DNA of 64,000 nucleotides from Macrostomum lignano (lineage: Eukaryota): assembly GCA_002269645.1 (NCBI GenBank), contig NIVC01000382.1:248001-312000 (forward strand), read 5' to 3'. The position numbers were made by a program, and so were the translations under genes. A model generated the notes under the pieces. That model saw only the letters and a program-made list of their open reading frames with translations. It was not told the DNA's origin and searched no databases. Below, piece by piece: positions 1 through 30,566 of the stretch. Numbering within the stretch: the first letter of the stretch is position 1; every line of letters begins with the position of its first letter.

Positions 1-32
1 AAGCAGATTTGGTGAAGTAGTTGACGATCGAA

Positions 33-6829: not shown

Positions 6830-7166
6830 CCCCTCTTATCTCTGCAATGTTTAGCCGTTCCCAATGCACAGAGATAGGATCCTCTCCGCAGTGTATTTTT
6901 CCTATATCCTTTTTGCCGCCTATCTCGCCAGTGCAAATGCGGCAGTATCATGAATCGCCTCTATCTCCGCAGTGCTTAGCCGTCCCCAATGCACAGAGAT
7001 AGAGCTCATATCTCTGCAGTGCTTAGCCGTCCCCAATGCACAGAGATAGGGCTCATATCTCCGCAGTGTATTTTTCCCTATACATTTGCATTGCCGCCTA
7101 TCTCGCCAGTGCTAGTGCGGCAGTATCATAATTCGCCCTACTACAAAAAATAATTTGTAGTAGGGC
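6830..7166. repeat. Local duplications (gcagtgcttagccgtccccaatgcacagagatag units) ending in a perfect 13-bp hairpin
   Basis: Repeated 40-45 bp units and a ~120-bp duplicated block. GCCCTACTACAAA(7135-7147)/TTTGTAGTAGGGC(7154-7166) form a stem with a 6-nt loop. Confidence 0.8.
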
Positions 7167-8021: not shown

Positions 8022-11000
8022 TGTGTACATTGACAAATGCAATTACAGCACGCAGGGTAGGGTTGGCTTTGGTAGACGCGCGGATTTGCTTGGTTCGCAT
8101 TGTTCATATATGTGCATCGAAATTTTTTTCTTGCTAACTGCTTCTATGGGGATGTATAGATGACGTAATCAGAGATAGGGCTTTGGTTGGGGGAGGCTGG
8201 GTCCGTGCTGTGAAAAGATCTACTTGCTTCGTCAAAATGTACATTGGGATTGAGAGAGAGGCCGGTCAAATTTCGTTGACAACTAGAAATGGAAAGGTTT
8301 GGTCAGAGAATAGGGGTGTATGTGTGTTTTGGCTTTATTCAAAATGGTCTGTGCTGCGAAGACGAGTCCATTGACCATTGGGTGTTTGCTGTTTTGCCAA
8401 TTCAGTATACTGAACCTGTTAAACTGATTGCCTCATTAGTCACTTTTCTGGGGTATGTGTAGGAGAGAGAGGCCTGAGAGAGACAAGGGCTCGATTTGGG
8501 TGGGTCCTCTGGCCCCATTCGTATTGGCTAATTTGGCGAATTGGAAAATCTACTTGCATGGGTTAAATTATTGAATATGGTCAGAGTTGAAGAATTTAGA
8601 GGATGAATCAAGATGTAAAGTTGGCAAAAACAACACTGATTCACCACATCTAAAAGATGACTGCTAGGAGCTTCGGAAATAAGACTACTGTACACAGCAG
8701 CATCGACAAAAGGTATTAAATTGTCAATCAAAATCGACCCGTAGATGTGCGATTTTGCATGGTTCACAGTGTTCGAAATTTAATACCTTTTAAATCGAAT
8801 CGAAAAATCGAAAAAAAAATCGTGCATCGAAAAATTTTGTTTCTTGCTAACTGCTCCTATGGGGAGGTGGATGACGTAATCAAGATAGGGTTTTGGTTGG
8901 AGGAGGCTCAATATATGAGTCTGTGCTGTGAAAATATCTGTTTGTACACTGAAATTGGAGAGGGAGGGTCGGAATTCCTTGACAGTTAGAAATGGTAAGG
9001 TCAGAGAGACAGGGACGAGTGGTTCTGTTCTACATGGGTCTGTGCTGTGAAGACGAGTCTAATATGACCATTGGGTGTTGGCTGTTTTGCCAATTCAGTA
9101 ATACACTAAACCTGTCCAGCTGATTGCCGCGTGAGTCACTTTTCTCGGTGGGTGCAGAAGGAGAGAGAGAGAGGTCTGGGAGGGACAGTTTAAATGTCAA
9201 TCGAAATCAATGGGCCGCTTCGCCGACTGTATATGTTAAAATTATTATACCTAGGTTTATAGCAAACTGTACGTTTTAACCCAATATTCAAGAATAATCC
9301 CTTCCCTGACTTCTTGAGGGGTATTACACGTACCAAATACATACATTTGAATGATGAAACAGCATTTTTGACGATTAAGTTGTAAAAATTATGGTTTCTG
9401 CTGATGAAGTGATTAATTTTGTTCAATAAAGTCAGCATTTTAACGTTAAAAAGAGTAAAAACTGTGAAAATTGACCTTTTTAAAACGAAAATGTGCAATT
9501 TCTAGTAATTTAGCTTTCAATGAAAATGTCTTGGGTGGAATTCCAACTTGGGCCCGGGGTGTGCATATGGAGATCAGTGTGTGACTCATTCCTGCTCGAA
9601 AGCTGTCTCTTGCCAACTTTGAAATCAGCATTTGGACAAATTAGCGGTTGAAATTATGGCTTTTGGGATGAAACTACTAAGTTTGATCAATTCGCATTTC
9701 GCATTTTAACGTTAGAAAATAATAAAACTGTGAAAATTGGCCTTTATTAAACGAAAGAATGAGAAATTCTAAGAATTAGCTTTAAAAAAACCATGGCTTT
9801 AGTGGAAATTGGACTGGCTCGGGTAATCCGTGTGCGATTATAATTCCTGCTCAAAGCTGTCTCAGAGTTCCAGAAGTAGCATTTGTGATAATTTTGTGTT
9901 AAAATTGCGGTTTTTAGTGATGAATTACTGATTTTGATCAATAAAGTCTGCATTTTAACGTAAAAAATGCGTAAAGACTGTGAAAATTTGTCACAGTTTT
10001 GTGAAAAAATGCTCATTTCTAGCAATTTAGGCTTCAATAGCCATGTCTTTGGCTGATTTTGGGCTAGCTTGTGTATGTTCGTGGGGGGTTCATTCCTGCT
10101 TAAACGCTGTCTAAGGTCAAGTTGAAAGCGATATTTGGACAAATTAGTTGTTGAAAGTATGGTTTCTAGTGATGAAACTACTGATTTTGATCAATAAAGT
10201 CTGCATTTTAACGTAAAAGATGCATAAAAACTGTGAAAAATTTTATTTTCTTATGAAAAAACTGCGCATTTCTAGCAATTTAGGCTTCAATAGCCATGTC
10301 TTTGGCTGATTTTGGGCTGGCTTGTGGATGTTTGTGTGGGGTTCATTCCTGCTTAAAAGCTGTCTAAGGTCAAGTTGAAAGCGACATTTGGACAAATTAG
10401 CTGTTGAAAGTATGGTTTCTAGTGATGAAACCACTGATTTTGATCAACAAAGTCTGCATTTTAAGGTTAAAATCGTAAAAAAAACTGTGAAAAGCTGCAT
10501 TTTAATGAAAAAAATGTGCATTTCTAGTCATTTAGCTTTCAAAATAACCAAATTTCTTGTTTGAAATTTCAACTTTACTTTATATGGAGAGGTCAGTGCA
10601 TGATTCATTCCTGCTTCTAACAGATTAAACCGTCTCAAAGACCAAGTCTGAAAGCTTGAAGTGAGAAGGCTGGGGAGGTGGAGAGGCAGAATTGAATAGC
10701 CTCACGTATTTAAATTTGTGGACTTCACTACTTCTAGTAAACGCAAGGGTGACTTATACTATTTACAAAGTTTAGAATCAAGTAAATCAGAATTGCATGC
10801 GGTGGAGACACTGATTCATAGGCTGTGTACATTTACAAATGCAGCTGGGGTTTGTCAATGCAGGTAGAGGTTGGCGGACTCGGATTTGTTCGCGGGGGTT
10901 GATGTGTGCATTAAAAGTTGGTTTCTTGCTATCTGGGGCGGCATGGATGACGTAATCGGAGAAGAGAGGGGTTTTGAAGTTTAATATAGGGTCTGTGCTG

Positions 11001-11170
11001 TGGAAAGATCTGTCTGTACACTGAAAATGGAGAGAGGGTCGAAATTCCTTGGCATTTAGAAGGGGAGAGAGAGAACAGGGGCGAGTGTTAAAATTTAGCT
11101 CGATTTTGCTATGGGGTCTGTGCTGTGTCTGGTGAACATCGGAGGGGTGGCTGTTTTCGAACAGGGTTGA
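8022..11170. repeat. Three diverged copies of a ~400-500 bp module (~8022-8520, ~8745-9185, ~10800-11170)
   Basis: Shared blocks gatgacgtaatc (TGACGTAA at 8161, 8872, 10948), ctgtgctgtg(g)aaa, ttcttgcta and gaaatgg/tagaa. ggagacactgattcatagg is shared by copies 1 and 3. Confidence 0.75.
9390..10620. repeat. AT-rich ~250-bp tandem repeat, about 5 diverged units
   Basis: Anchor cattttaa(c/g)g..aaactgtgaaaa at 9436, 9702, 9951, 10204 and 10457 (spacing 249-266). Confidence 0.85.
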
Positions 11171-11939
11171 ATTTGACTATGGCCCGAGTTAAAGGGTGAT
11201 TCAGCATTCAGTATAGGAGCTTCGAGGGAATGGTTTACTGTAATTAAAGCGCAACGAAGCTTCTTGTATCATACCCACTGTCAATAGAAATATAAAGCAC
11301 TGCTTCAACACAGTCCTGCATTTGGGGTCTGACTTGGGGAGAGGCTTGGATGACGCAACCTCCGCCCCATCGCTTGGTGAGAATTTGTACAGACCCGCCT
11401 CTATATGAAAGTATGTGTATTTTATAAGTAAATTATCAGTATATTCATTCAAACCTACATTCTCCGAGGGTGAAAATGTACATTATACCTAATTTTTTGG
11501 GTATGTAGCAGATATGAGTATAGGCTATCGATGTACATATAGACTCCGACCAGTATTATTCAAATCTGTCTCTGAGAATGTACATTGGAAATATACATTA
11601 CGATGCGAGCTATACAATTAGTTGACTCATTTGGATGAGATTGTACATGTAGTAGGGTTTCGAGTTGTAATTTTGGTGCGCGCGGGCCGTCTGGGGAAGA
11701 CACTGTAGATTAATGCAAGTGTACATATAGAACTGGGGATAGACATGGACAATTTGGGATAGGGATTAATGTACATGGGATTAATGTACATATCCATTTT
11801 GAGATAGATAGGGATTATTGAACATGGAATTAATGTACATATATGAGCACATGGATTATTACGACTACATATTTCCATATGACGCTTAGAATAGCGTTTT
11901 TGTATACTACTTACTTCATTTTCAGATAGTAGTATAATT

Positions 11940-12230
11940 TGCGTTTTTTGCGTCAAAACATCTGAAAACCCTGCTCTATCTGCACGATACGTAGTTTCGT
12001 GAATAAGTTGAAAAAGAGTAACGGCTCATTTGCTGGTGCTTGAACACCAGGATTCATACCTTGGACTCCGAGAAACTCGGGAAGCTGCCCAGCTCTGTCA
12101 TCTTCTCCGTCGTTGACAATTGTCCATTCGTTTTCCTCATCCTCCATCTCCAAGGTTGGCTCCTCAATTACTTCAATAACTAAGTCCTGATCTGACTCAG
12201 TCGATGAGCTGTTGGACTCGTCGCTTGTAA
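11940..12230 (-). pseudogene. piggyBac-like transposase N-terminal relic
   Basis: Acidic tract followed by W..V.DGEDD..GQLPEFLGVQGMNPG....EPLLFFNLFT, then a shifted ETTY. This resembles the FxGxxG...PLxFFxLF...ETNRY start of piggyBac DDE transposases. No catalytic region or TTAA-CCC end found. Confidence 0.5.
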
Positions 12231-14354: not shown

Positions 14355-14481
14355 CACACACACACACAAAAACACACACACACACACACACACAGGCGTA
14401 TTCACAGCAAGAGCTTCCTGCCGATGACGCCATCGCCTGCGGCGATCGGTGCTGCAGGATGCGCTGCAGGATACGCCTGTG

Positions 14482-14514
<33 letters not shown>
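14355..14514. repeat. Fold-back element with (CA)n-GGCGTAT / ATACGCC-(TG)n arms
   Basis: Arms are reverse complements, including a mirrored A-run/T-run interruption. GC-rich core contains the hairpin atcgcc-tgc-ggcgat. Confidence 0.75.
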
Positions 14515-15789
14515 ACTTTGTGTACATGTGGTCCTATATACCGGAAATTGCGTACATTTATACGTACAATTATGTCTATGCGCTACATTGTGTGTAGTTC
14601 GTTGACCTGCGTTTGTAAATACAGTTTAGCCCGTGCACTGCATTGATGCCTACTTTTGTGCTAAGGTACCTGCTTTTTATTAAATACACTGCACCAAAAG
14701 CAACTTTTAACGGTACATACTGTGTTTTTGTAGAGGTGTCGGTATGTTTTTTAATACATATTTCTTTAGTGTAAATTGGTGTGCTTCAACTTGGCTCGCG
14801 AATCTTGCACTATGGCTCTCTAGTGGAAAGTACTCTTACTTGTGCTGGTTTCGGGTGATTGTAAGGCTTTCTGCTTGACTTCTTTAGTTTACCTGATGGT
14901 TGAATGAGGAGTGGGAGCTGACGCGCCTACCTCGGGGGAGGAATGCAGCCCCGTGGTCTGGTGCAGCGCTTCTGTTACCCCTCTCCGTCCGCACTGTACT
15001 TGGTTTCCGCTAGGATCCCTCCTTGGGGTTAAGAGTGGGCGGGCCCTTTGTACTCGACCCTGGGTTAAAAACTCGCATTTGGAGGCTCTGGGGAGAGTTG
15101 CAGTGGAGTTCAACAAATTTCTGATAAGATCTCTTGCGGGGGCATGACACTCGTCTCGAAATAATAAGAACCCGAACAAGTGCTGGATGCCCTTACTAGT
15201 TGGCGGGTTGTTACCTCTACAATTGTGCACTATTTCTGTCAATATTTTCCCCCTGCATTATGTCAATATGTGCTACAGCGTGTCATAATATGATACTTTC
15301 ACGCACTAATATATATCATAATTTTCCTGCATTATGCCTGCTTCTGCCTCTACGATGTGTGTATTTTATAGCCTATGCACCTACATAATTTGAATCTACA
15401 GTGTGTGCATATGCACCTGCATTATACTTGTATCTACTGTGCGTATGTGTATTTCAACCTATGTTTTACAATATACTAGCATCTACAAGCGCCTACTACA
15501 CTAATGAGTAGGTGCTGTGTATTATACCTACTATTTTGTATATTTCACCTACTTTTCAGCCAAAATATCGATAAAATGCACCTACATTGTGTGTTTTTTT
15601 GCTGCCCATATACTTAATTCTATATGTCCGTACACCTATATGTTTCGTAATATGTATTATGCACCGATATTTACACCTACTGATGGGATTAATATGTGTT
15701 TTGCTTACTTTTTATGTAAATATACGCAATTTCACCTACTATAAGTAGTTTTCACTAGCCTAATTTTGTGTTAATAGGTATTGTTGACT

Positions 15790-16110
15790 CCAAATCGGTG
15801 TACACACATATCGGGAGAGTGTACACTCATATCGGGAGAGTGTACGCTCATATTGGGAGAGTGTACACTTGTATTGGGAGAGTGTACACTCAGATTGGAA
15901 GAGTGTACCTTCGGCTCGGGAGGGGGGCGTCCGCGGCGTACATTTCGAAGGGCCCGGACGGCGCTTGGCACCTGTGGCTCTAGTGCCATATGGTAGGGTG
16001 TACATGTCGGGGTACGTGTCGGTAGGGTCGCCTGCGACATACATGTTGGGGTACATGTCGGGAGGGTCGCCTGCGGCATACATGTCGGGAGGGTTGCCTG
16101 CATCATACAT
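15790..16110. repeat. ~21-bp atatcgggagagtgtacac repeats and gtacatgtcgg repeats, related to Maverick subterminal repeats
   Basis: The same unit recurs in direct orientation at 18465-18590. Confidence 0.75.
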
Positions 16111-17299
16111 ATCGGGGCGCATGGACGGGGCTCGAGTGGTGTACTCTTTGTGTGAATGTATTCTTGTTGTGTAACTCTTGACCGTCCCTTCCCTCCAGGA
16201 GCACTGCAAGTAGACTAGTATGGCTTGGTATTCGGAGTTGGCGTGTGTACGTAATATACTCTTTGTAATATTTACCTGACCTGGGTTTGTAAGTTCTAAT
16301 AACATATAAATGACTACTGCTGACTAGTTGACGCATTTGGGTGGTGTGATAAAAACTAGTAACGTACCGCGATTTCGAGAGAAATCCTAGCACAATACTG
16401 TTCTGTCCGGCATGTGGAAAAGTATTTGCCCCGCCTTCGCTTACTCATACTGCACACAGACAAAGCTTATCTCTATTAGCAATCTGTTCGTGGTGGTTTA
16501 GAAGGATACTGTCTTCCTGTATATAGCTCTCTATCCCTTCATCACTCGTAATAACTTCATAAATGCTCGCTTGACCAATGGTTGGTACTGAACTAATAAT
16601 TCATACGATACATATTGGTTAATACTTTCTAACTCCGTACAGCTCACAAGTTTCTACTCTCTACCTTATCAGTAACATTAAAATAAAAAAAGGTAAAATT
16701 TGCTGGTTTTGTGCCTTGTTTGCTTACTTTTCTATTAAAATACTTGCGGTTTATAATTGAAAATGTCTGCTTTTTATTCAATTTTATGTGGTTTGAAGGT
16801 TTATTCTTGCTAAAATGCCTGGTTTCTTATAAAACTTTCTACTCTCTACAATGATTGTGTCAGCTATTTCATTAAAATGACCTACTTTTTGAATAAAACG
16901 TTGTATTTAAGCCCCTAGTTTTTTTCAAAACATAATGGATACCCTCCCAACGCCCTTGGAACCTCCTCAAGCAGCTTACATAGAGCATGCAGACCCCGAA
17001 ACCCCCTCTAGTGTGCCCTGATTTCAGCGGTCTGACGGTTAAGATCTGTATTTTTACACTATATTTTCCTTCATGCAGCAATACAGGAAGGAGGGTTTGG
17101 AAGAGTGAGTCTGGCGGGAGAGGGGGCTTGTGGGGTGATGAGGATGCGTACACACAGTTTAGCCTGTTTTAGCCTACCTTTTGGGTTAATATACTTACTA
17201 TTATTACTACCATTATACCTACTATGTACATACTATTATACTACCCACTATTAAATATGCTGCACTAAAACCAACTTTTGATAATACATAGCGTGTTTT

Positions 17300-18850
17300 G
17301 GTCGATTCTCCCTCACGTCTCTGCGCCTACACATGTGCTCTGCTCGCTTTGTTCTCTGTTTGTGTACCTCTCTGTAACGTCTCTGTACGCTCAGACTGGT
17401 TTCTCCGTCCCCGCACGCACCTCTACTAAAGTTTGCTGTTACCTACCCCTACACACTGCTCTCTGTCTCCCTCCGCGCACACCTCTCTGGCCTTGCATGC
17501 AACTTGCATGTCTGCTCCCCTGTCCTGCCCTCGCGTGGGTCCCTGTCTATACATGGCTACCGGACCCTACCTCTCTGTGCCTTGCACGGAACTCTGTCCC
17601 AGGCCCCTTCACACTTCTCTGTCCCGGGCTGCAACTGGCTACACGCGCCTCTGTTCCCCTGCCAGCGTGGCTGCCTACCCCTGCACACTGCTCTCTGTCC
17701 CTCCTATCCGCGCCTCTCTATCATCCTATTCCTGCAGCTGACCATGCCGTTCAGCTCTGTCCACGCACGGCTCCACCCCTGCCCGTGTCTCACTGTACCG
17801 CCCTGTGTGGCTCCCTTACCCTGCGCGTTTGCTTCCTATCTCCCTCCTGCTCCATATGTTTCTGTTCCCTCACACTACGCACGCGTGGCCTGCTCTCTGT
17901 CCATACACATCTCTGCTCCTCCACTCTATCCTCGCGTGGCCCCTTGACTGTTCGCATGCCCCTGCATACCCTGCCTGCCTCTCTGTCCCCTGCAACTGGG
18001 GAGGGAGCTCTCTATCCTCTGTACGGCTATCTCTGTGGGGGTGTGTGTGACTCACACTGTCTCTCTGTCCTAGCATGCGCCTCTCTATCCGGCTCCTGCA
18101 GCAGGCTGTGTTATTCACATCTCTTTCCACCCACCCTCTGCCCGTACACGCTCACTGTACAGGGCTGCGTCAGCATCGGGGTTAAAACTTCTCGCTCCCT
18201 ATGCTTCAACAGTATAACAACCTAGTGGCTGGTTCTCTGTCCGCCCCACCCCTCTCTGCCCGTACCCGCTCACTGTACAGGGCTGCGTCAGCATCAGGGT
18301 TAAAACTTCTCGCTCCCTATACCCCCAAACCGTGTAGTGGCCTAGTATGGGCGCGACCTGGGTTTGATTTCGCTAGTTGAGATGTGGGTGAGAGAGGGGA
18401 AGAGGCTAGGTGGGGGCAGGGCGTGAGGTATAGGGTGCCTGCGGGGTACGTATCGTTGACTAAATATCGGGAGAGTGTACACCTGTATTGGGCGAGTGTA
18501 CACCCATATCGGGAGAGTGGGAGAGTGTACTGGGGAGAGTGTACTGGGGAGAGTGTACCTTTGGCTCGGGAGAGTGTACACTCGGGGCGCCTGCGGCATG
18601 GGCGTCTGCGGCTCAGGAGGGTGCGCTTGGGATCTGATTGATTTGGGATCTGATTGATTTATTGGGATCTAATATCGGGAGGGTGCGCCTGCGGCGCTTG
18701 GCGCCACGCGCCTGCGGCGCGCGCGCGCCGAGCGCCGATATCGATACGGGTATCGATCACCTAGTGATCGGGGCGCCAGCCAATGAGAGGCGAGGAGGGT
18801 TGACACCCACCCCACCTCCAAAATCAACTGATCTACCGTTGCTTAGTAGT
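17300..18850. mobile_element. Right terminal region (TIR-like) of a Maverick (element A) whose left end lies outside the window
   Basis: Ends caaaatcaactgatctaccgttgcttagtagt (18850), 31/32 identical to the element B end at 30560. Shares gctcactgtacagggctgcgtcagcatc and gtgtacac motifs with the B TIR. Directly abuts Gypsy gag. Left boundary approximate. Confidence 0.8.
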
Positions 18851-19205: not shown

Positions 19206-20190
19206 GGACTGGTGACCGCGGGCCATCACCAGCCCTGCCTAGCAAGGCCCAAACCGCTTCCATCTTCCTTCTTCCTCCCTGTCCAGCTGGGGTCAACCAG
19301 GATCCCCATCTTCCCTGACAGGAGCCCCACGCCAGCCTGCCGAGTGATGCCCATCGCGGTGATTGCCAGAGTTGCCAGCACCGTGACCGTCCCTGCCCGC
19401 AGCCGTGTCATAATCCCGGTCAAGGTCCCATCGTCCGTCGAGCAGGGTCTGTTCGAGCCCAGCTCTGATTTCGTCGACAAGACGGGCCTGCTGCCGAACA
19501 GGGCGCTAGTGGTGTCCAGCGCTGATGGAAACCTGCCGGTGGGCGTCTGCAACCTGAGCGCCGACCCGGTAGTGCTCTACCAAAACCAGACAATCGGGAA
19601 CTTCGACTCTGCCGAACCTCATGGATCTGGCGAAGAACCTGATGAAGAGGTTGGCTTCAAAATCAACCCTGAGCTAAGTATGTCGCAACGCAAGCTAATC
19701 GAAGTCCTTCTCAGCAAGCACTAGAAAGCATTCGCCAGTAACGAGTTCGATCTGGGAACAACACACCTGCTGCAGCACGAGATCAACCTGGAGCCCGGCA
19801 GTCGCCCTATCACGCGCAGGCAGCGAACAATCCCGCTGAACTTCCGCCAGCAAGTGGATAACAAGATCAGTGAGATGCTGCGTCACGGAATCATCGAGCC
19901 ATCGTGCAGTCCATGGGCGAGCAACCTGCTCGTTGTTCGCAAGAAAAACAACGAGATCCGAATCTGCACCGACTGGAGAAGCCTCAACTCGTGCACCGTG
20001 AAGGACGCCTACCCGCTGCCTCCCCTGTCGGTTGCTCTAGACGTACTTACGGAATGCAGTTGGTTCAGCACACTCGATCTCCGCCAAGGGTTCCTGCAGG
20101 TCGAGCTACGTGAACAGGATCGAGAGAAGACCGCATTTTACTCAACGCAGGGCCTGATGCAGTACAGGAAGCTTGGATTCGGCCTCTGTA
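19206..20190 (+). pseudogene. pol: Gypsy element 1 pol, 5' part (protease core apparently deleted; RT N-half)
   Basis: SPWASNLLVVRKK..RICTDWRSLN..DAYPLP..FSTLDLRQGFLQV..KTAF..FGLCN. No DTG/DSG motif after LPVQLGSTRIPIF. One in-frame TAG at 19722-19724. Confidence 0.9.
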
Positions 20191-20823
20191 ACTACTAAGC
20201 AACGGTAGATCCGTTGATTTTGCGAAGGTCCGTCGGGCTGATGTCGGCCTCTAGCACCGCGGCAAGGTGCTCCCTCGGGGTGTACACCCGGGGTGTACCT
20301 CCAGCGGGGTGGGCGTCCAGCGAGTGTACCTCCAGCGGGGTGGGCCTCCTGCGAGTGTACATCCGGCAGGGTGGGCGTCCAGCGAGTGTACCTCCAGCGG
20401 GGTGGGCCTCCCTCGGGGTGTACATCCGGCGGGGGGGGGGATTCCCACTCGTGTGCACGCGGTTAGTGTTGGGGGAACCCTGATGCTGACGCAGCCCTGT
20501 ACAGTGAGCATGCAGCCCTGTAGCTGGGGACAGAGAGCAGCCCCTGTAGCAGGAGGGGTAGTGCGTGGAGAGCCGCCATCCCCCTGTAGCAGGGACAGAT
20601 AACAGGCGGCCCCCTGTAGCAGTATGAGGCGGGGTACAGAGAGACACGGGGTGCTGGGACAGAGAGTGCGTGGAGGCACCCTGCGCCGCCCCGGCATGTC
20701 GCAGCACGCGGCGTGGACAGAGAGGGAGTGTGAGTCACACGGAGGGACAGAGAGCTTCCCCAGGCCGGGGTGGTAGAGGGACAGACCGGCGGTGAGTGAT
20801 AGAGAGCCCCCAGGCTGCAGAGG
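20191..20823 (+). repeat. Left TIR of element B (633 bp)
   Basis: Reverse complement of 29988-30560 apart from a ~60-bp internal repeat-unit difference, a few 1-nt indels and rare substitutions. Confidence 0.95.
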
Positions 20824-20904
20824 AATTGAAAAGAAAAAACACGTAATTCAGTTGTTTCAGGTTCAGGCCATCCGGCAAACAGAGCAAAGCTCTCCAACAG
20901 TGTT

Positions 20905-21558
20905 TTATTTTGCATAAACTACGGGGTAGCGCCCCAACACATTAGCATAGTAGCGAACAGATGCGTTCTGCAAGCAATTAACAATCAAGTAGGAGTAGGG
21001 CTCCCTAGTGGCGTCTTCGTACATTTGAACAAAACTTTTTGGGTTAGCGGGGACAAGCTGCTTTGCAATATGGGCGACTGTACTAACGTCCCGTACATTG
21101 CGGAACAATACAAGGTAGTTTGCGTTAAGGGATTGAGTGCGGTGCTCCTTGCCCTTGGCAAACAGGTTTTGTACAAGGTACCAAAGCCGGAATCCCACAT
21201 GGCTGACTTTGCGAGTGAAAAATGCGGTAAAAGCAGCGTTTTTTTCCATGGCTTGCATTTGATCATCGACAACGAGTAGAATATTCGGAGCGGGAACATA
21301 GGTTTCAGGGTTAAATGTAGAGGAGCGAAAATTGACAGGGTACGGTAATTCAAACAGTTCCGGGTCTGGATAGTGCCCAAACCAATCAACGCGAACAGGC
21401 TTAGGGTCCTGAAAAAACTTGTTTCGCAGCAATTCTTCAACAAGAGTTGTTTTTCCGCTCTGGTTAACACCAGCAAAAATCGCCGAAGTATTTGGAGCAA
21501 ACTTTAGAGCGTCAGGATCAATTGTTTGGTACATTTTCAGGGCGAGTTGACACTCCAA
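20905..21558 (-). CDS. A32-like/FtsK-HerA DNA packaging ATPase
   Basis: Walker A GVNQSGKT, Walker B LLVVDD, RKVSH, QNLF, SLNANYLVLF, DAT.EPYSYL. Likely ATG at 21534. Confidence 0.93.
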   Translation of the reverse strand: MECQLALKMYQTIDPDALKFAPNTSAIFAGVNQSGKTTLVEELLRNKFFQDPKPVRVDWFGHYPDPELFELPYPVNFRSSTFNPETYVPAPNILLVVDDQMQAMEKNAAFTAFFTRKVSHVGFRLWYLVQNLFAKGKEHRTQSLNANYLVLFRNVRDVSTVAHIAKQLVPANPKSFVQMYEDATREPYSYLIVNCLQNASVRYYANVLGRYPVVYAK

Positions 21559-21568
21559 ATATTAAAAA

Positions 21569-22006
21569 CTATTTTATTTGTAGAACATGTTTTCGAACCA
21601 TCAAATCATTTTCAAGCAGATTGGTAGAGTAACATTCCCTTAAAATCTTTTCAATCGACAACCCCTCTAAAAAGTGCTTTTCGGCCACAAAAATCACATG
21701 CGGCCCACACGCTACACTTAGAGGGTGTTGAACAGGGTGGCGATTCATAGCAACAGGTGAATGTACATGCTTCGAGATCCAAGCCGAGAGCAATTCCGGC
21801 ACGGGTTCAATACACAGGGGGTCAAAAAATGTTACACTCTTATCATCGTGTAGGCAAATCAGTCCCCAGTGGGTGCCTGGCAGATTGCCCGTGTCAAAAT
21901 TAATTACATATGCAGCAGGGTAAACAGGTGCAGGAATTCTGTCGAGAGGGCAAACGCGCACTTCCACAGGTAGTTTTAAACGCTCCAAAATTTCCAACGT
22001 GTTCAT
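21569..22006 (-). CDS. Adenain-like cysteine maturation protease
   Basis: NFDTGNLPGTHW..FFDP..VQHPLSVACG, giving the His/Asp/Gln/Cys set of the adenoviral protease family. Confidence 0.92.
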   Translation of the reverse strand: MNTLEILERLKLPVEVRVCPLDRIPAPVYPAAYVINFDTGNLPGTHWGLICLHDDKSVTFFDPLCIEPVPELLSAWISKHVHSPVAMNRHPVQHPLSVACGPHVIFVAEKHFLEGLSIEKILRECYSTNLLENDLMVRKHVLQIK

Positions 22007-23283
22007 ACGTAGTCCAGAATGGGTTGGCGGCCTCTAGTGATTTGCACCGCGTTGTCAAAGTAACCAAACACCAAAACGTTAATCCCTGCAGGTAGGGCTG
22101 CAGAAAGCTTTATCTGTAGGGTCAGATTCCCTCTCTCGCGAGGCATGCTATGTCCACCCAGTTCCATATCGGGCATTAGATTCCACGCAAATAAGCAGTA
22201 ACCGGCGCGATAATCCGAATATGACAGGTCAATGTCCAAATCGCGATTCATTTTCCCTAGGCTCTTAAACAGCATGGCGTATTCGCGAGCATAGTTTTGG
22301 GCAGCGAACCTTGGAGTGAATGGTTGACCGCACAGACTGACACCGTCCTTGTACAGGGCCACACTGTCCGCCCCAAATGGCTCGAAATTGAACGGATTAT
22401 GGGTAGCCACCCCGTTATATGCGGCACTATTTACCATCCCCATAATGACAAGTTTAGGCTTCTGCTCCGGGAAAATATTATTGATTGATACGTCGCGAAC
22501 TCCTACAGCGACAGAGGTGTTGTGTACAACGAGGCGCTCGATGGGGTAGACTGCATTCTGTGTTGACAGCTGTTCTTCAATCTCCAAGGCCAGTTGGGGG
22601 TTAGCCTTTACCCGACGAACGTGTAATTTTGCACTTTGAAGAACCAACTTTGCATCAACCCCTTCGGCGTGATTCTCCACAACGAATCCAGAATTTTGCA
22701 GAGTGAGCGTAACCACCATATCAGTGTAGGGTAGCAGCATACGATCGTTGGTGACAAAAAAGTCGAGACTAAGAGGGCCATACAGATGAAATGTTCGAGA
22801 ACCGGCAGCCATCGCCTTGCGAGTTACAAAGCCAGGATTTCCAACCGCAGCCATTTGACCCCAGCGTCTTTAGCGTAGCCCATCATCCGCAGTTGGTTAG
22901 ACTTTGAATCAGACCCATAACTCAAGCATGTACGAATGTACGCCTTGTAGGCATGGTTGTTGTTGCTAGACTCGATATGTGTACCATTTATGGAAAGAGA
23001 CACGTTTTTGAACATGGTCTCCAAGAGGTAATTGATTGGCGCCACGTTTGAATCCGCCGCCAAATCGGCTCCATTAGCTCTTTTAATACAACCTTTAATC
23101 TCGAGATCAATGTCATTAAGATCGACAAACGTCTCGCCGCCCACAATTCTAAACTCGACCACACTCGCATTTTCGACGCTGGCAACCGGGTGTATTTCTT
23201 CAGTAGTTGAACCTACAGCGGCAATCTGGTGGCTCGAGGGGCAAAGAGCTCAAACTCGACTTTGTACACAGACACTCGGACAT
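22003..23283 (-). CDS. Double jelly-roll major capsid protein (Maverick PY type), three 1-nt frameshifts as assembled
   Basis: ATG at 23283, then CTKSSL/ELF..(Q)IA..EF.I.G..DL..LE.K..NNN.AYKAY; NPFNF; GY.LFAWNL.PD; GNL.L.I; terminal I...RQPILDY. Shifts near 23250, 23228 and 22860. Confidence 0.9.
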
Positions 23284-23312
23284 GTTTAGTAGACAGACTC
23301 GATTCGGCGAAT

Positions 23313-23657
23313 CTAATTGAAGCGGGGCTTTTTATTTATAGTGCTGAAAATGTCTGAATTGAGACGCTTCGGAGCCTTTTTTCTTCTTCGTCCGCTACCC
23401 CTTTGGGTAACCGTGTCTTTAAAGGCGTCCTTGGCAGCCTGAACAGAATTGCGCAGGACAGACTCTTTCAAATTGCCTCCTTGCTCGAGGCTATCGTTAA
23501 CAGTAGTTGCTAGGGCTCTAGTACCATGACGGAGAACGTTTTTACCAAAACTCTTTAGAATTGGCAGCGCGAAGCGGGCAATGCTTCCAAACAAACCGTT
23601 GCCCCTCTGGGCGCCCGCGAAAACAGGCAAAGCTCCTCCAATCAGAATAGAAGGCAT
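23313..23657 (-). CDS. Small Maverick virion/core protein with QRGxG motifs and an amphipathic helix
   Basis: FAGAQRGNGLFGSIARFALPILK...QRGSGRRRKK; sits between the minor and major capsid genes, as in Mavericks/adintoviruses. Confidence 0.75.
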   Translation of the reverse strand: MPSILIGGALPVFAGAQRGNGLFGSIARFALPILKSFGKNVLRHGTRALATTVNDSLEQGGNLKESVLRNSVQAAKDAFKDTVTQRGSGRRRKKAPKRLNSDIFSTINKKPRFN

Positions 23658-23700
23658 GATTAAGCACTAGGATTTAGTTTACTGAGGCTGTGCTGTTTAT

Positions 23701-24840
23701 TTATAGCTTCTTTTCGCGGATGTTAACGCTCAAGACGGTCTTGCCCCTCATTACTTTTGTCATATCCCTGCCCATATCATCGTTAATTTGTACTTCAATA
23801 GTTTTGAATGGGTGCTTAACCAACGGTAGATATGCTGGATTGACAAACTCGTAGTACTCGCGACCGCCCTGAACTTTGGGATCCATCGGTATAGCACCCA
23901 ACAGAGGAACTTTAACGTCTCCTACAATAACAGAATCGACTATGCTCGAATAGATGTACATTGTTTGTATTCCACCGGTTAATTCCATTGATGCGTTTGC
24001 GTAGAAATCCGATATACCGAAAAATGGGGTTGTATAATCATGCTCTGGGAAACCAAGCACGCTGGTCAAGCGCCCCAGCCCAAACATGTAATCCGTCGAG
24101 CCAATGTAATAACACCTATTCGTAACTTCGCTGTATCTGAAAAAGTCCGTTCTAGGTGCTGGAGCCGCTATGAGATCTTTGATATGTCTCCAAATTATAT
24201 CGTTGAGTTCCTCCACCAATCTTTTAGGTGTACTATAGTATCCTCCCTGCATAAAATAGATTTGATCAGACGCTGCACTAGTAACTTGTCTTATTATTGG
24301 AGCGTGGTCCATTGACTGTACAGTCGGTTCCTCAACAACTGCGGTGATGGAGGCTGCACACCCCGCGTGTAATACGAGTTCAGTAGGTAGATCCTCATTA
24401 GACTCGAAGCCGGCGACTAGTTTAAACACCTTGGGTAGGGCATCCGGGAATTTGATGCCGACGGTGGATTTTGAAGTATTCACAATCATAAAGGCGGTTG
24501 GGGATGTTCTTAAAAAGACAATTTTCTTATTATCCCCTTCAACGTATCGGATACCGTTTAGAAAGCCGGAAATACATTCTTCAGGGGTTTTCAGACCCGC
24601 TGCGAGACAAAGGCTTGCAAACGACGAAGCCGTCAAGAGGCCCTCCTGTTCGCGAATGGTGATCGGTATAGATTTTTTGAAAGATTCAAATTCTTTGGTA
24701 AAGTAGATCCGTTCGAGGCAAACCTCATGATTCGGAAAGTGGAGAGTGTCCGGTAAATTAATAAAATAATGAGCCGGATTATTTTCGGGATAGTGCTCGG
24801 GGCACGCATTGCTAGGCAGAAAGAGATGCATGGTAGCCAT
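23701..24840 (-). CDS. Minor capsid (penton, Maverick PX type) protein
   Basis: LFLPSN..YPENN..Y.INLP.TL..HEVCL.RI at the N-terminus. MYIYSSIV..VIVGD.KVPLL..F..P.Y.P..F.TIEVQI.DD.G..G.TV..V..R at the C-terminus. Confidence 0.88.
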   Translation of the reverse strand: MATMHLFLPSNACPEHYPENNPAHYFINLPDTLHFPNHEVCLERIYFTKEFESFKKSIPITIREQEGLLTASSFASLCLAAGLKTPEECISGFLNGIRYVEGDNKKIVFLRTSPTAFMIVNTSKSTVGIKFPDALPKVFKLVAGFESNEDLPTELVLHAGCAASITAVVEEPTVQSMDHAPIIRQVTSAASDQIYFMQGGYYSTPKRLVEELNDIIWRHIKDLIAAPAPRTDFFRYSEVTNRCYYIGSTDYMFGLGRLTSVLGFPEHDYTTPFFGISDFYANASMELTGGIQTMYIYSSIVDSVIVGDVKVPLLGAIPMDPKVQGGREYYEFVNPAYLPLVKHPFKTIEVQINDDMGRDMTKVMRGKTVLSVNIREKKL

Positions 24841-24843
24841 GCA

Positions 24844-25943
24844 TTAGTTATTATTACGTTGACGTATATTTATAACTTCATTTACAGGTACAAATGAATT
24901 AAAAGTGTCGGGATAACCGCGCCAGCTAACGTAATGGTGCGCAACACCATTTATTAACACGTTTCTACGCAAAACTTTATTGATTACAAAACGCTCGGGT
25001 CGGGTAGATTTGGACAGTTCATTGTAGTAAAACCGTCCCTCAATCACTTCACCAGACAAATCAGAAATACGATAAAAATGTGGGGGTCCAGGACAAACTT
25101 TGGATATAATGTACACCTCCTCACTATACATGTCGTACGCCTCCTTGTCGAATGCCCTGCGAGATTTCGAAATTCTCACAAAATCCCCCTTTTTATATAC
25201 GGGGTCGTCTTTTTGCTGATCCGGGTAGAGCTTTTCCCACACACGCTTCTGATTGTGGAACCCTACACTTGACGGTTTCATCTCAATAGTAGAATGCGTC
25301 GTGTTGTTGTAATTGCCTACCAAATTAGGTAAGTAGTCAACCCAACGCCACGTGTTGTTGTGCTCAAAGTAGCGAGCCAGACGCTTTCGAAGAGTTCTAA
25401 TCAGCCTCTCGGCCATGTTTGCCTTGTACACAGAGTTGGTGCTGTACATTTTAACATTATTGTCTTTTAGTATGCGGCGCATTCGCTGATTATAAAACTC
25501 GGTACCCCGATCCACGTGAAGGTAAAGGGGGGGGCAGGGAAATCATTCGCCAACATTGACTCAAACGCTGCGGGGGTATCACTCTTTAGTTTAATTGCCC
25601 TACAAAAAGCCTGCTTACTAAGCACATCAATAATAACTAGTATATATTTATGTCCGTCATTCCAACGTTTGTATCGCGACATGTCCATCAAATCGGCTTG
25701 TAGAGTTTCCATGAATCCTCCCGACATTACTTTTCCCGTTTTAAATGTCCTGTTGACTCTCCGGTGACGGGTGTAACTCGGTTGGGTTTCTAGCCATTCC
25801 CTGGTTTGGCGTCTTGTCAGGTTTGGCGCCAGACGTTTGGCCTCCTGATAGACACGGGCAGCATTTGAAAAAGCGGCGGCTCCTTGTTCGTAAACTCGAC
25901 GAAGAGCGGTTAGAGCCCTCATTGACAACAAGTGTGGATGCAC
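24844..25943 (-). CDS. Maverick retroviral-like DDE integrase with C-terminal chromodomain, one frameshift in a G8 run (25527-25534)
   Basis: WLETQPSYT.H, QADLMD, IIDVLSK, (YLHV)DRGTEF, AERLIRT, YN.T.HSTI.MKP, GDFVRIS, YSEEVY; chromo-like VSWRGYPDTFNSFVP. Confidence 0.93.
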
Positions 25944-26053
25944 AGCATGAATAGTTGCACGTAATGTCGGCTGGGGAGTTGTCTACACAAAGCTTTGACG
26001 CGGCGGCTGCTGCGCCCATGACCGCCGGGCGCGGTTATGTATGGATTAGGGTT

Positions 26054-26683
26054 CTATTTATAAAGAGTATCGTATTTTCGGTTCCGGGGTGGTCTTAGTT
26101 GGTAATCGTGATATTTACCCACCCCGGTACCTTGATCCACAAGTTTGGGCATAGCATTTACACCTTTGTTGCGCGTGGTCGTTAAATCGCGGGTGTCTGT
26201 CGCAATTGTGTGCTCATATTCATCGCGGTAATCGTCGGTACCAACCAAATGGTCAACCTTCTTTTCCTCCACAGGGAGCTGTTTCCGACCGAGCATAGAC
26301 ATTGGTATACGGGCCTTGTCTAGTAGAGCCCAGAAAGCGGTCGAATATTTCGGGTGATTATTAGTGTTGGTGGTGACGGCTTGTAGAAGATCAAAAACGT
26401 TGCTACCACCCCAAGTTTCACCATCAAAAACGACTTCCCACGATTGGTTGTAATTTAGGCTGGGGTGCTTTTCTGTTAGTATATTCCATATACGTTGTTG
26501 CCTATCAGAAAATAGCTGCTTTGTCGTCTTTTGGGGTTTTACTTTAGCCAATTGGGTCTGTAGCTTTGCATTGTACTCTACAAGTTTTTCGTACTCCGAT
26601 TTTGGGGCAATTTCTCGCGGAGTACCCTGTCTAAGCTGATTGAATTCCTCCTCGGGGACCACAACGTACTTGTCCATTTTCAA
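26054..26683 (-). CDS. Conserved Maverick structural-cluster protein (possibly PZ-like)
   Basis: KYVVVP..WEVVFDG..GSNVFDLL..F..L...IP pattern recalled from Maverick ORFs; located between integrase and the small GGFL protein. Confidence 0.6.
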   Translation of the reverse strand: MKMDKYVVVPEEEFNQLRQGTPREIAPKSEYEKLVEYNAKLQTQLAKVKPQKTTKQLFSDRQQRIWNILTEKHPSLNYNQSWEVVFDGETWGGSNVFDLLQAVTTNTNNHPKYSTAFWALLDKARIPMSMLGRKQLPVEEKKVDHLVGTDDYRDEYEHTIATDTRDLTTTRNKGVNAMPKLVDQGTGVGKYHDYQLRPPRNRKYDTLYK

Positions 26684-27069
26684 CGTCGTTGTCCTAGCAG
26701 ACCGCCAAACAGTCCAGTGATTAACGGAGCAGCAATCTTGGCGAGAATTGGTAGGAATCCTCCAACTTGAGGGTCCGATAGTATCATATTCTTCTTCCTA
26801 TTTATAGACAGTTTTTTGTCGGCCATGTCATGCAGGGCTTCTCTATAACGTTTCAACCTTGCAAACTGTCTAGGGGATAGATCGATATTGCCCTTGAGTA
26901 CATTGTGGCTTAACTCGCACAGACACTGCATCAACTCATTATCGGCTCCCCTAATAATGGCCCTCCTTCGATGTGGTCGCGCGTCACCGAGCTCCTCTAG
27001 CTCGCGACGGCAAGAACAAAGACGAGAAATTCCGTTTGTCATTATTAAGGTGGTAAGCATTGCGTGCAT
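26680..27069 (-). CDS. Small Maverick protein ending in QxGGFLP (reminiscent of adenovirus pX)
   Basis: R.AII..A..ELMQCLCE...NVLKGNI.L...L..YR..L..A.KK.S..RKK..I....QVGGFLPIL followed by an amphipathic tail. Confidence 0.75.
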   Translation of the reverse strand: MHAMLTTLIMTNGISRLCSCRRELEELGDARPHRRRAIIRGADNELMQCLCELSHNVLKGNIDLSPRQFARLKRYREALHDMADKKLSINRKKNMILSDPQVGGFLPILAKIAAPLITGLFGGLLGQRR

Positions 27070-27107
27070 ACATGTGCATATTTTGTTTATTTATAAGCAA
27101 AGCATAA

Positions 27108-27587
27108 TTAGAGTTGCAGAATAGCAGTCACGTGGTCGTACATTTTACACAGTTCGTCATAGTTTCGTATTCCTAGGAACACTAACCGACCATTCTTTCC
27201 GCACAGCAGGCACTTGGCCTTGCGGAATGGGGACTTTATTACAAGCCCATTGAATACCTCACTCTCCCACTCAACCCAGCGCGAGCTCGAGTTGGCAAGG
27301 CGGAAAAAGTTTGGCTTAACATTAACTTCTGCACGATAAGTACCGGTAGTGATAACAACAGAGTTTGGTTTACATTGAGCAAAAAGACGCAGCACATCGT
27401 TGGTTGATTGGCAACCAAAAACAATGGCAGATAATGAACGTTTGAAAAAGTTTATTGTACACTTTCCGATCCTCAGGTTGTACAATGCCCGGGGTCTATG
27501 AAACGTTCTAGCGCAAAACACCCTGTTTACGCACACGACGTTCTGCAAGCGGTTTTTTCGGTTGCTTTTGTTTCCGCTCAGCTCCAC
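27108..27587 (-). CDS. Highly divergent TBP-like protein inside element B
   Basis: RLQNVVC resembles TBP QLQNIVS. WESEVFNGLVIKSPFRKAKCLLCGKNGRLVFLGIRNYDEL resembles [31 protein letters not shown]..EEI. No ATG before the domain; overlaps the upstream ORF by 80 bp. Confidence 0.7.
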   Translation of the reverse strand: MELSGNKSNRKNRLQNVVCVNRVFCARTFHRPRALYNLRIGKCTINFFKRSLSAIVFGCQSTNDVLRLFAQCKPNSVVITTGTYRAEVNVKPNFFRLANSSSRWVEWESEVFNGLVIKSPFRKAKCLLCGKNGRLVFLGIRNYDELCKMYDHVTAILQL

Positions 27588-28149
27588 CAGCTCCGCGCTT
27601 GCGTCCTACCTTGATTTTTAACGGTGGAATCCAGTAGCAGCGGTCAAACGCCTGCTTGGGAGCTTCTATGAATTGCAGTTGTTGAATTTTTGGTACCGCG
27701 GTTAGAACCGAGTCGTGAATCACCGCCGTGTCTAGGGCGAACAGTACTCTATAGTAGCCCGTCTTGTTCTTGTAGTCGGTGCACAACTTGCCGCTCTTGT
27801 CGTACATTTTAAAGTCGTGAGCCAATCCGAATGCAGCGCTGTCGCAGCCAAAAGTGGGGTTGTACCCCAATAGCGCCATTCCTTGGATAGAGAGCTGGTG
27901 ACACACGGAATTAAACGCTTCTGGTATGCAGCTCTCCAAGTGCTTTTGGGAAAGAATGATGAATTCGCGGCCTTCATTGTCGGTTCTCACACCCTTGACA
28001 ATCAGTACGGGCGTCGCATTGGCAAGATAGAGAGGGCCCTGTTCGTCGTACTCAATGTCGTACGTCTCGGTTCCGTTGTAGCTTGGACCTCTCGACTTGA
28101 GAGAGAATAGGTCGATCCTAACACTATTGTAGTCTTGAACGGTATCCAT
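27508..28149 (-). CDS. Hypothetical protein (beta-rich, basic NLS-like tail; possibly OB-fold SSB)
   Basis: Intact ORF from ATG 28149, about 50 nt downstream of TATATAA (28198-28204). The fold is a guess only. Confidence 0.65.
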   Translation of the reverse strand: MDTVQDYNSVRIDLFSLKSRGPSYNGTETYDIEYDEQGPLYLANATPVLIVKGVRTDNEGREFIILSQKHLESCIPEAFNSVCHQLSIQGMALLGYNPTFGCDSAAFGLAHDFKMYDKSGKLCTDYKNKTGYYRVLFALDTAVIHDSVLTAVPKIQQLQFIEAPKQAFDRCYWIPPLKIKVGRKRGAGGAERKQKQPKKPLAERRVRKQGVLR

Positions 28150-28241
28150 GTTGCTGCTGCTGTTGCTGAGAGTGGGTCTCACACCCTGAGCGCCTCCTTA
28201 TATACCCTTGGGGCGGAGGGTGGGGTGGCTGGGCGTTTTTG

Positions 28242-28757
28242 TTATAGTGCTTCTTTAACGACACTTTCCGGTGTTGGAAATCCGGAAAAAATAAACCTTT
28301 TGTTTCGATCTTCTGGTCGAGTGGTTTGAGGCGTGTCGTTAATGCAGCTGCAGTGAGGGTTGATAGTCAACTTCGCTAGCACTGGTCTACTGTGTTTAGG
28401 TCGCCAAATCCTTTGGTGTTCCGTCCACGAGGGAGCAATCGGCTGGTGATTCCGGTACCGTATTTTCTCACGATGATCCTCTTGTAATATTGGGGCAATT
28501 ATCTGCTCCATTCTTTGAAGATTGGCTTTTAAATGCATCTTGTCTCTAAAGTAGTAGTCAATTCGGGCATCTGTATATTCTTGGGTGCTGTAAGGTCCTT
28601 GCCCAATTTCGTCTACCTCGACATTAAAGGTGACTAATCGTTCGGGAATTGGTTTGCCGTGACAAATGCATAACCAGTCTGTGGACTTTTTCAGGGTCTC
28701 GTACTCTGCCCTTTCTTTGCTCGATAAAAGCGGGTAGTCTCGAGAAATCCAGCTCAT
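28242..28757 (-). CDS. Hypothetical protein, 171 aa
   Basis: Intact ORF, ATGA overlap with the upstream ORF, co-oriented in the element B cluster. Confidence 0.65.
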   Translation of the reverse strand: MSWISRDYPLLSSKERAEYETLKKSTDWLCICHGKPIPERLVTFNVEVDEIGQGPYSTQEYTDARIDYYFRDKMHLKANLQRMEQIIAPILQEDHREKIRYRNHQPIAPSWTEHQRIWRPKHSRPVLAKLTINPHCSCINDTPQTTRPEDRNKRFIFSGFPTPESVVKEAL

Positions 28758-29131
28758 TCCTCTGACTCGTCAGATTCGTCGAGAAAGAAATAGTGGAAGA
28801 AATTGTCGACTCTATTCTTTTCAACTGCACAAAGTATTTTGTCTGACAGGTGAAATTCGCAGTCTCCTTTTACGTACAGGCGCTTCCCGTCGATAACTTT
28901 GATAGATGCGCCGCCTCCGAGATCGTAATCTGTGCAGCTAGTGCCCAGAAACTTCATTCGATGCCATTGTGCTCGACTAAACACGGCTCCTGGACAGCTA
29001 CAGTTTTGACAGTGGATGCGGAAACGCGGCTTGTTTGGGTCCCAATATCCCACTTCCAGCACTGCGTTGTCAACGTGGGTGTACACTATTTCCGATTGCC
29101 AGTACATTTCGATATTGTTGAGAAATACCAA
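28754..29131 (-). CDS. Probable PC4/Sub1-like ssDNA-binding protein
   Basis: PGAVFSRAQWHRMK..YDLGGGASIKV resembles PC4 PGxKGISLxxEQW and the relic at 41982-42521 (PGLTGMELTIYQF..LLGGNRQVVV). First ATG at 29107. Confidence 0.5.
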   Translation of the reverse strand: MVFLNNIEMYWQSEIVYTHVDNAVLEVGYWDPNKPRFRIHCQNCSCPGAVFSRAQWHRMKFLGTSCTDYDLGGGASIKVIDGKRLYVKGDCEFHLSDKILCAVEKNRVDNFFHYFFLDESDESEE

Positions 29132-29141
29132 TTTTATTTAT

Positions 29142-29939
29142 TTATAGGCTGCCGTCTGAACAGATTTCCAACCATTCCCTCCACTGTAGAACGGTTCTCT
29201 CAATTGATAAAAGTAAATACGCCGCTAGGAGCCCCCGGTTGCTGCTGCGCGCTTCGTAAAGACAGTTGAGATATGTGTCTCTATTTGCATACGCAAATGA
29301 TACGGGTTCTGGCAGAATCCGGTTGAGCAACTTTGATAATAACAACCTAGCAGTTCTACCATTGCCGTCGCTAAAGGGGTGTATGGTGAGAAACTTTTCT
29401 AGGAAATATGCTCCTGTCACTACTGCATTACGCAAGATTTGTGGCTCTTTTATGTCTCTAGTTAATTTTACCAGCTGCCGTTCGATATTTTCTGGGGCAC
29501 TGTAATACATACTCGCGCCTGCTGGCTTAGCGTGCTTAATTCTATACGATCCCGCATTCGGGAGCAGTCCTCTGCACACGCGTGTGTGAACTTGTCTAAC
29601 AAACTCTGTGTCAATTAACCCCCTCGTGTCATTGAGGTGTATTGCCGCACTCCATAGATTGGCTGTGACCATACAGGACCGGGTTTTTATCGCTTCTTCT
29701 GCTTCCTCCCAAGTCAACGCCACCTCTCTCTCCTCAATGTTTACTTCTGTTACGAATGCCAGCCGTGCTAGATGTGTGAATTCTAAGCGCTCCTTTGCGG
29801 TCAATCCCGCGATTCTTTTCCTAGTGTCTGATAACAATCTTTCAATGAGGGGTAATCTGGCGCGCACGCTCTCGTTGCTGAAATAGGGGTTATCAGTTAT
29901 ACCCTCTTCCATGTTCTCCATACAGAGGGTTTTGTACAC
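29142..29939 (-). CDS. Fic (Fido) domain protein
   Basis: Full motif HPFSDGNGRTAR (~29347-29382), plus VH..V..GL..AG.YR and N-terminal YKTLCMEN. First ATG at 29921. Confidence 0.92.
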   Translation of the reverse strand: MYKTLCMENMEEGITDNPYFSNESVRARLPLIERLLSDTRKRIAGLTAKERLEFTHLARLAFVTEVNIEEREVALTWEEAEEAIKTRSCMVTANLWSAAIHLNDTRGLIDTEFVRQVHTRVCRGLLPNAGSYRIKHAKPAGASMYYSAPENIERQLVKLTRDIKEPQILRNAVVTGAYFLEKFLTIHPFSDGNGRTARLLLSKLLNRILPEPVSFAYANRDTYLNCLYEARSSNRGLLAAYLLLSIERTVLQWREWLEICSDGSL

Positions 29940-29987
29940 TGCTTCTATTTATGGTTGAATTAACACGTTGCTCGCGGCCTGTCTGTC

Positions 29988-30560
29988 CCTCTGCAGCCTG
30001 GGGGACTCTCTATCACTCACCGCCGGTCTGTCCCTCTACCACCCCGGCCTGGGGAAGCTCTCTGTCCCTCCGTGTGACTCACACTCCCTCTCTGTCCACG
30101 CCGCGTGCTGCGACATGCCGGGGCGGCGCAGGGTGCCTCCACGCACTCTCTGTCCCAGCACCCCGTGTCTCTCTGTACCCCGCCTCATACTGCTACAGGG
30201 GGCCGCCTGTTATCTGTCCCCTGCTACAGGGGGATGGCGGCTCTCCACGCACTACCCCTCCTGCTACAGGGGCTGCTCTCTGTCCCCAGCTACAGGGCTG
30301 CATGCTCACTGTACAGGGCTGCGTCAGCATCGGGGTTCCCCCAACACTAACCGCGTGCACACGAGTGGGAATCCCCCCCCCCGCCGGATGTACACCCCGA
30401 GGGAGGCCCACCCCGCTGGAGGTACACTCGCTGGACGCCCACCCCGCTGGAGGTACACCCCGGGTGTACACCCCGAGGGAGCACCTTGCCGCGGTGCTAG
30501 AGGCCGACATCAGCCCGACGGACCTTCGCAAAATCAACGGATCTACCGTTGCTTAGTAGT
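29988..30560 (-). repeat. Right TIR of element B (573 bp)
   Basis: Inverted copy of 20191-20823. Confidence 0.95.
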
Positions 30561-30566
30561 TCTGTA

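Follow-up and report, generated by a model that had tools for sequence, protein, structure and literature searches.

How is a Maverick-like element replicated when it encodes a capsid module and an integrase and no DNA polymerase? Mavericks, or Polintons, are defined by the presence of polymerase and integrase on one molecule. The element that raises this question occupies positions 20191..30560 (10,370 bp) of a 64,000-nt stretch of the Macrostomum lignano genome (contig NIVC01000382.1, positions 248,001 to 312,000; the whole stretch is referred to as the window), and was described in the initial annotation as a candidate helper-dependent satellite. Near-identical UniRef entries name the same species. 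Across the genome (764 Mb, 5269 contigs) we observed two types of element that have complementary gene sets, share end words and are integrated separately, each with a 6-bp target-site duplication (TSD): a capsid-integrase segment, of which the window element is one copy, and a polymerase segment whose polymerase gene is spliced. We consider it probable that these are the halves of a bipartite Maverick, in which the polymerase segment would copy both halves and the capsid-integrase segment would package and integrate both. The satellite description holds in so far as a polymerase must be borrowed in trans; the polymerase element, for its part, lacks integrase and capsid genes, and the dependence looks mutual.

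Two element types with shared ends

The window element had been annotated as complete, with near-identical terminal inverted repeats (TIRs) and a clean 6-bp TSD, and its boundaries at 20191 and 30560 stand: the hexamer TCTGTA is found immediately outside both ends (20185..20190 and 30561..30566). The left TIR (20191..20823, plus strand) and the right TIR (29988..30560, minus strand) are complementary arms of ~630 and ~570 nt, 98–100% complementary over three ungapped blocks, and differ in length by the copy number of a 31-nt repeat. The outer end reads 5'-ACTACT, and the first 32 nt constitute a modular A-type end word (ACTACTA, 11 variable nt, 9 variable nt, TTTTG) in common with the polymerase segment. 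The insertion point lies in the reverse transcriptase frame of a retrotransposon, with RVT_1 matches on both flanks. As annotated, 13 co-oriented genes (all on the minus strand) extend close to the TIRs, the outermost 65–95 nt from them; the window copy has frameshifts in two of them, near 22855 (major capsid) and near 25520 (integrase), and indels in other copies sit at different positions.

The reported lack of a polymerase remnant was confirmed both by tblastn with the two classes of the polymerase pPolB that this genome contains, which gave no match inside 20191..30560, and by a hidden Markov model (HMM) of 26 database pPolB homologues, which found no domain in the six frames of the element; the same HMM scores polymerase-segment loci at E ≤ 1e-139. 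The family to which the window copy belongs, CAP-A, comprises this copy and 24 other loci (at least 25) with identical gene order and 0.8–3.8% substitutions, and a pPolB domain was detected by HMM in 0/24 of the other loci; these polymerase-less copies bear out the expectation that a polymerase must be borrowed in trans. CAP-A loci have ~18 distinct 6-bp flanks, and several loci with a common flank are probably one site assembled twice. Among 14 capsid copies with both ends matched, 12 have a TSD; 12 measure 10.3–10.6 kb and two 13.9 kb. Longer copies were considered as polymerase carriers and rejected, the 13.9-kb length being due to nested inserts: in C4 the insert is 3.5 kb long and contains a 943-aa open reading frame (ORF), which we take to be transposase-like, and in C2210 it is AT-rich; C56 has no capsid genes. 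Among the copies compared, none with these TIRs was both longer and equipped with pPolB, as a one-off deletion at the origin of the window element would have required. The census comprised 66 CAP-A-type ends, and no polymerase was found in 14 further A-type end regions.

A second family, CAP-B, was recognized among the 137 of 380 candidates that were scored by its capsid identity of 86–90%, followed by a gap to ≤35%. Ten CAP-B loci have the CAP-A gene order minus the Fic and 117-aa genes, with a TSD in eight and pPolB in none. Three further capsid lineages (78–85% identity) occur in other assemblies, which suggests that the system extends beyond the M. lignano genome; scans of viral contigs with the capsid and the polymerase exon gave no match.

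The CAP-A end-word pattern was found at 216 genomic sites (100 of which were listed), versus one for the control. Many A-type ends pair at 8.6–9.8 kb, and PF03175 matches lie inside such pairs. All 20 A-type pairs for which both ends were fetched have a 6-bp TSD (one extra paired row, a false pairing of two elements, was excluded); ten encode pPolB (POL-A) and ten are non-coding. The polymerase element is ~9.5 kb long (range 9–10 kb). Its counterpart POL-B, 71% identical to POL-A in the searched exon, bears the CAP-B end word and has a TSD in 10/10 cases. All 134 candidates of the exon search were scored and grouped into 56 POL-A and 40 POL-B loci, none of which lies ≤30 kb from any listed capsid match. 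Capsid-segment proteins had no match at E ≤ 1e-3 in polymerase and non-coding loci, and POL-B frames had none in capsid loci; with no capsid-segment protein in these TSD-flanked polymerase elements, the integrase must come in trans.

The pPolB of the polymerase segments is of the pfam03175 (“Alpha”) class and 30–36% identical to mollusc, amphioxus and frog homologues. GT-AG introns interrupt its motifs A and B at identical positions in 9/9 POL-A and 9/9 POL-B loci, and four introns are spliced out in contigs of all four probable RNA runs (four studies), the RNA status being a guess of the search tool and the contigs giving no level or strand. Decay as an explanation for the broken pPolB frames was rejected on these grounds, the breaks being introns with conserved positions and spliced contigs. 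The POL segments also bear a PC4-like gene (E 1e-5 in POL-B; entries L102:7183-8001 and L088:6785-7318), and many POL-A copies have an additional 336-aa acidic ORF of no assigned kind. At one locus (L082:335-9341), contigs of three of the four runs skip the entire polymerase element, which means that either an unoccupied site or a repeated copy of its target exists. At G000:C234:57207-58975, a polymerase of the same class as the partner's (32–44% identity) is old and broken, with no capsid-segment match in 20 kb.

The ends of the two segment types vary together. The terminal 31–32 nt contain two variable modules, which occur in many combinations across copies and segments, whereas a given copy usually has matching ends. 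In a comparison of 41, 22, 20 and 12 ends, pair A (CAP-A/POL-A) had two whole words, six first modules and two second modules in common, and pair B (CAP-B/POL-B) three and three, with 0 in common across pairs; beyond the first 32 nt, the TIRs of the two segment types diverge. Such shuffling of modules suggests end exchange during replication. One TSD-flanked locus (G000:C150:69198-81089) combines a capsid-segment left end with a right tip of polymerase-segment type, in which ~45 nt of polymerase type are followed by the capsid-segment TIR, and the ATPase end is duplicated. This chimera is a direct trace of end exchange and shows that the two types had met before integration. Comparison of A with B over ten genes of the capsid segment and five exons of the polymerase (one copy pair per comparison) gave nonsynonymous divergence (dN) of 0.07–0.50 and synonymous divergence (dS) of 1.4–3.1 or saturated, values that indicate purifying selection on both segments.

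Gene content of the capsid-integrase segment and its neighbors

From the right TIR, the gene order is Fic, two ORFs, predicted single-stranded DNA-binding protein (SSB), TBP-like ORF, two conserved Maverick ORFs, integrase, minor capsid, small basic protein, major capsid, protease, and ATPase. The packaging ATPase (20905..21534) has a visible Walker A motif, a weak AAA match, and 30–42% identity to ATPases of full Mavericks, and the maturation cysteine protease (21569..22006) a weak Peptidase_C48 match (E 0.06) and 38% identity to a full-Maverick protease. The major capsid protein (22003..23283) measures 427 aa where the frame is open; the AlphaFold2 (AF2) prediction for a sister copy (pLDDT 85) retrieved double jelly-roll capsids in Foldseek (E to 1e-19), and the predicted structure thereby confirms the double jelly-roll fold. 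The 114-aa small basic protein (23313..23657), presumably a virion core protein, has 30–42% matches located between the integrase and capsid genes of metagenomic Mavericks. The product of 23701..24840, which we take to be the minor capsid protein from its position and motifs, has a 27% match in a metagenomic Maverick and among the core genes varies most from A to B (50%). The retroviral-like integrase with chromodomain (24844..25922) is 35–41% identical to full-Maverick integrases and matches Pfam rve at E 2.5e-8 (family-B frame).

The two conserved Maverick ORFs encode 207 aa (26054..26677; 27–28% to ORFs of two full Mavericks) and 129 aa (26680..27069; 31–37% in metagenomic Mavericks), the latter presumably PZ-like. 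The TBP-like ORF (27111..27605; start codon position provisional) is kept in A and B, and its Pfam TBP match (E 1.5e-4) falls just short of the cut-off; a TBP-like gene is also present in the full-length Maverick at the left of the window (21-605, E 1e-24). For the 213-aa protein encoded at 27508..28149, an AF2 model (pLDDT 70) retrieved in Foldseek a giant-virus family that includes ranavirus P31K (E 4e-6, TM 0.50), and four real homologues were found. P31K is an SSB (PMC8734342), and because the predicted fold matches it, the capsid half probably has a part in replication as well. The 171-aa ORF (28242..28757) has no assigned role and is kept in A and B, whereas two genes are found in family A only: a 117-aa ORF with no reliable match in our searches (28754..29107) and a Fic-domain protein (29142..29921; Pfam Fic E 4e-14). 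Among the ORFs of the element there was no Pfam or PHROG match to SF1/SF3 helicase, primase, or PolA (the replicases of Polinton-like viruses and Tlr1), and sequence searches of PDB with the segment proteins gave nothing useful.

Certain copies depart from this organization. In a family-B copy (G000:C1313:243594-257956), the capsid-protease-ATPase block is in inverted duplication. Four loci (C12, C100:652645, C1382 and C5131; L228, L229, L231 and L232) have a capsid-A-type end followed only by a 3-kb accessory block (~89% identity) of Fic, two ORFs, predicted SSB and TBP-like genes; these are either a truncated subfamily or a third segment type.

The rest of the window contains further Maverick-related sequence. 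Part of an unrelated full-length Maverick (1..7144, minus strand) encodes pPolB (1188-4848) and TBP. The initial annotation had proposed a pPolB to the left of the element as a helper lineage; this candidate was rejected, as its element ends at 7144 with AGTAGT. A non-coding remnant (8107..11995, minus strand) has a B-type polymerase-segment end at 11995, and 12875-14143 is a fragment of a further full-length Maverick family (~79% to C114). The 31/32-nt terminal match noted at 18819-18850 is real (three matches versus 0.01 expected); the end is that of a non-coding palindromic element, one arm of which lies at 14478..18850 (minus strand; A-type end; 93% to C261:123483-132051). Its first end module is identical to that of the capsid copy, which sits in the same retrotransposon at a distance of 1.3 kb. 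Sister palindromes (C181, C212, C436 and C977; L083, L085, L087 and L093) are 8.6–9.3 kb long, have A-type ends and are 99% palindromic throughout, with no capsid or polymerase match. The palindromic element is a parasite of the ACTAC system, not a helper.

A probable bipartite genome and the alternatives

ACTAC-ended polymerases were found only on POL segments and integrases only on CAP segments, and both types are amplified and integrated; therefore, each must use the enzyme of the other. Complementary essential genes thus lie on separate molecules with shared termini, as in a bipartite genome. We propose that the polymerase, with a fused terminal protein, would prime replication of either segment at its ACTAC-type origin, with assistance from the predicted SSB that the capsid segment encodes; the capsid-segment integrase would insert both segments, and the capsid module would package either, as suggested by their similar size and by selection on the capsid genes. 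Co-replicating molecules would swap terminal words. Pairs A and B would represent two such viruses, and the non-coding palindromes defective riders. Somewhat less firmly, we lean toward a broader statement taken as one claim: that this is a lineage of integrating double jelly-roll double-stranded DNA viruses, stably bipartite with capsid-integrase and spliced polymerase segments, whose halves are linked only by a modular origin of 31–32 bp, shuffled from segment to segment and diverging in concert between virus species.

The main competitor, which we regard as improbable, is that two independently derived elements cross-mobilize each other in the nucleus without making up one infectious unit, so that either the capsid element alone is packaged or none is. 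Such an origin would accord with the difference in GC content between the segments, the other polymerase class carried by capsid relatives, the presence of introns in the polymerase element only, and the ~2x number of polymerase versus capsid loci in pair A. However, purifying selection acts on capsid, ATPase and protease in both pairs, a capsid gene deprived of its polymerase partner could not reach new cells, and the segments are similar in size (9–10.6 kb). Still less credence attaches to a satellite that borrows the polymerase of autonomous, AGTAGT-ended Mavericks, despite the many such families with open pPolB frames in the genome and the mobile polB-less Polintons with full-length siblings described in a butterfly (bioRxiv 10.1101/2025.02.07.637071). 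No self-sufficient helper with the same origin was identified among the full-length families read: ends were read in four of the >10 families that exist, and all four begin AGTAGT, with unrelated TIRs that differ from the second base onward. Moreover, the full-length capsid and integrase are only 28–41% identical to those of CAP, and integrase-less polymerase elements with matching ends would be left unexplained.

Descent of both types by deletion from a full-length ACTAC-ended parent, whether extinct, unassembled or exogenous, seems to us just as improbable as that satellite. Fragmentation of the assembly into 5269 contigs and the presence of unpaired ends would allow this, but parallel splits at an identical seam would be needed, one in A and one in B, with synonymous sites saturated between the two; the segment TIRs differ after 32 nt, and the 14 further A-type end regions were without polymerase. 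As for an assembly artefact that dropped the polymerase, scattered indels do indicate an imperfect assembly, but the ~18 distinct family-A flanks and the matching TSDs in all four classes already refute it, and it can be dismissed almost entirely.

Several points nevertheless weigh against a bipartite virus. Complementation, particles, free linear DNA and the terminal protein have not been observed and are inferred only. The lists of capsids and of other-class polymerases are lower bounds, and the ends read cover four of the >10 full-length families. CAP-B and POL-A have 19 nt in common just inside the end word, and the pairing may be less than strictly exclusive. Indels, either genuine or assembly errors, are present in many copies. 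The nearest metagenomic capsid relatives (33–36%) have the other pPolB class in 16/30 loci of ≥6 kb and the partner's class in 0/30, and GC content is 0.45 versus 0.56 between the segments; fission of one ancestor is therefore not supported, and the two segments may instead have come together by association. Relatives in the genome and in databases are all 28–41% identical, too distant to place the halves.

Relation to known systems and implications

Segmented genomes are known for RNA and single-stranded DNA (ssDNA) viruses. Bidnaviruses (BmBDV) similarly have two segments with matching termini, a Polinton-derived pPolB and separate packaging; they are described as ssDNA viruses with a parvovirus-type capsid, no integrase, and capsid and polymerase on one segment (PMC4061559, PMC8502044). 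The elements described here fall outside Bidnaviridae (ssDNA, parvovirus-type capsid, SF3 helicase), having a double jelly-roll capsid and an integrase and no helicase. The segmented densovirus of Acheta domesticus likewise places replication and structural cassettes on separate segments, but is presented as a non-integrating ssDNA parvovirus with no pPolB (PMC10267136). Vesanto virus has segments with matching ends and ssDNA, and is not described in its report as integrating (PMC8363768). The polB-less Polintons of the butterfly Pieris mannii are also TIR-bounded and amplified; they differ in having highly similar full-length siblings and transposable element cargo, with a polymerase-only partner not described in that account (bioRxiv 10.1101/2025.02.07.637071).

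The capsid-integrase segment resembles Mavericks/Polintons (including adintoviruses) in its TIRs, 6-bp TSD, rve integrase (matched in a family-B frame, frameshifted in the window copy), double jelly-roll capsid, ATPase and protease (PMC8097293, PMC8502044), and the pfam03175-class pPolB of its partner conforms likewise. Maverick pPolB is reported to have a terminal-protein domain that primes at genome ends (PMC11161782), and Maverick integration to leave 6-bp duplications (PMC8097293). In contrast to described Mavericks, pPolB here lies apart from integrase and capsid, and the ends begin 5'-ACTAC rather than with the common (AGT)2 (PMC8097293, PMC8502044): family ends read ACTACTA (A) or ACTACRTA (B), with neither (AGT)2 nor (AG)3, and no pPolB is on the same molecule as the capsid. 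Unlike intact vertebrate Mavericks, described as intronless (PMC8097293), this pPolB has spliceosomal introns. The survey in the same report demanded integrase and pPolB within 4–40 kb (PMC8097293), and a split element could therefore not be found there. We found no bipartite Maverick in our searches of open-access literature (most subscription journals, Repbase and supplements lay outside this scope), and an earlier description is possible.

A split integrating form, if true, would change the definition of a Maverick, and would show that such viruses are thrown out as debris by screens in which the two genes have to lie close together; Mavericks seen elsewhere with the polymerase alone, or with everything but the polymerase, may then be unpaired halves. 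With the paired end words, the origin specificity of Maverick polymerases and integrases can be tested directly. M. lignano would provide a tractable animal model for the persistence of multipartite genomes: each half can be kept in the germ line by integration, with the cost of co-infection thereby removed.

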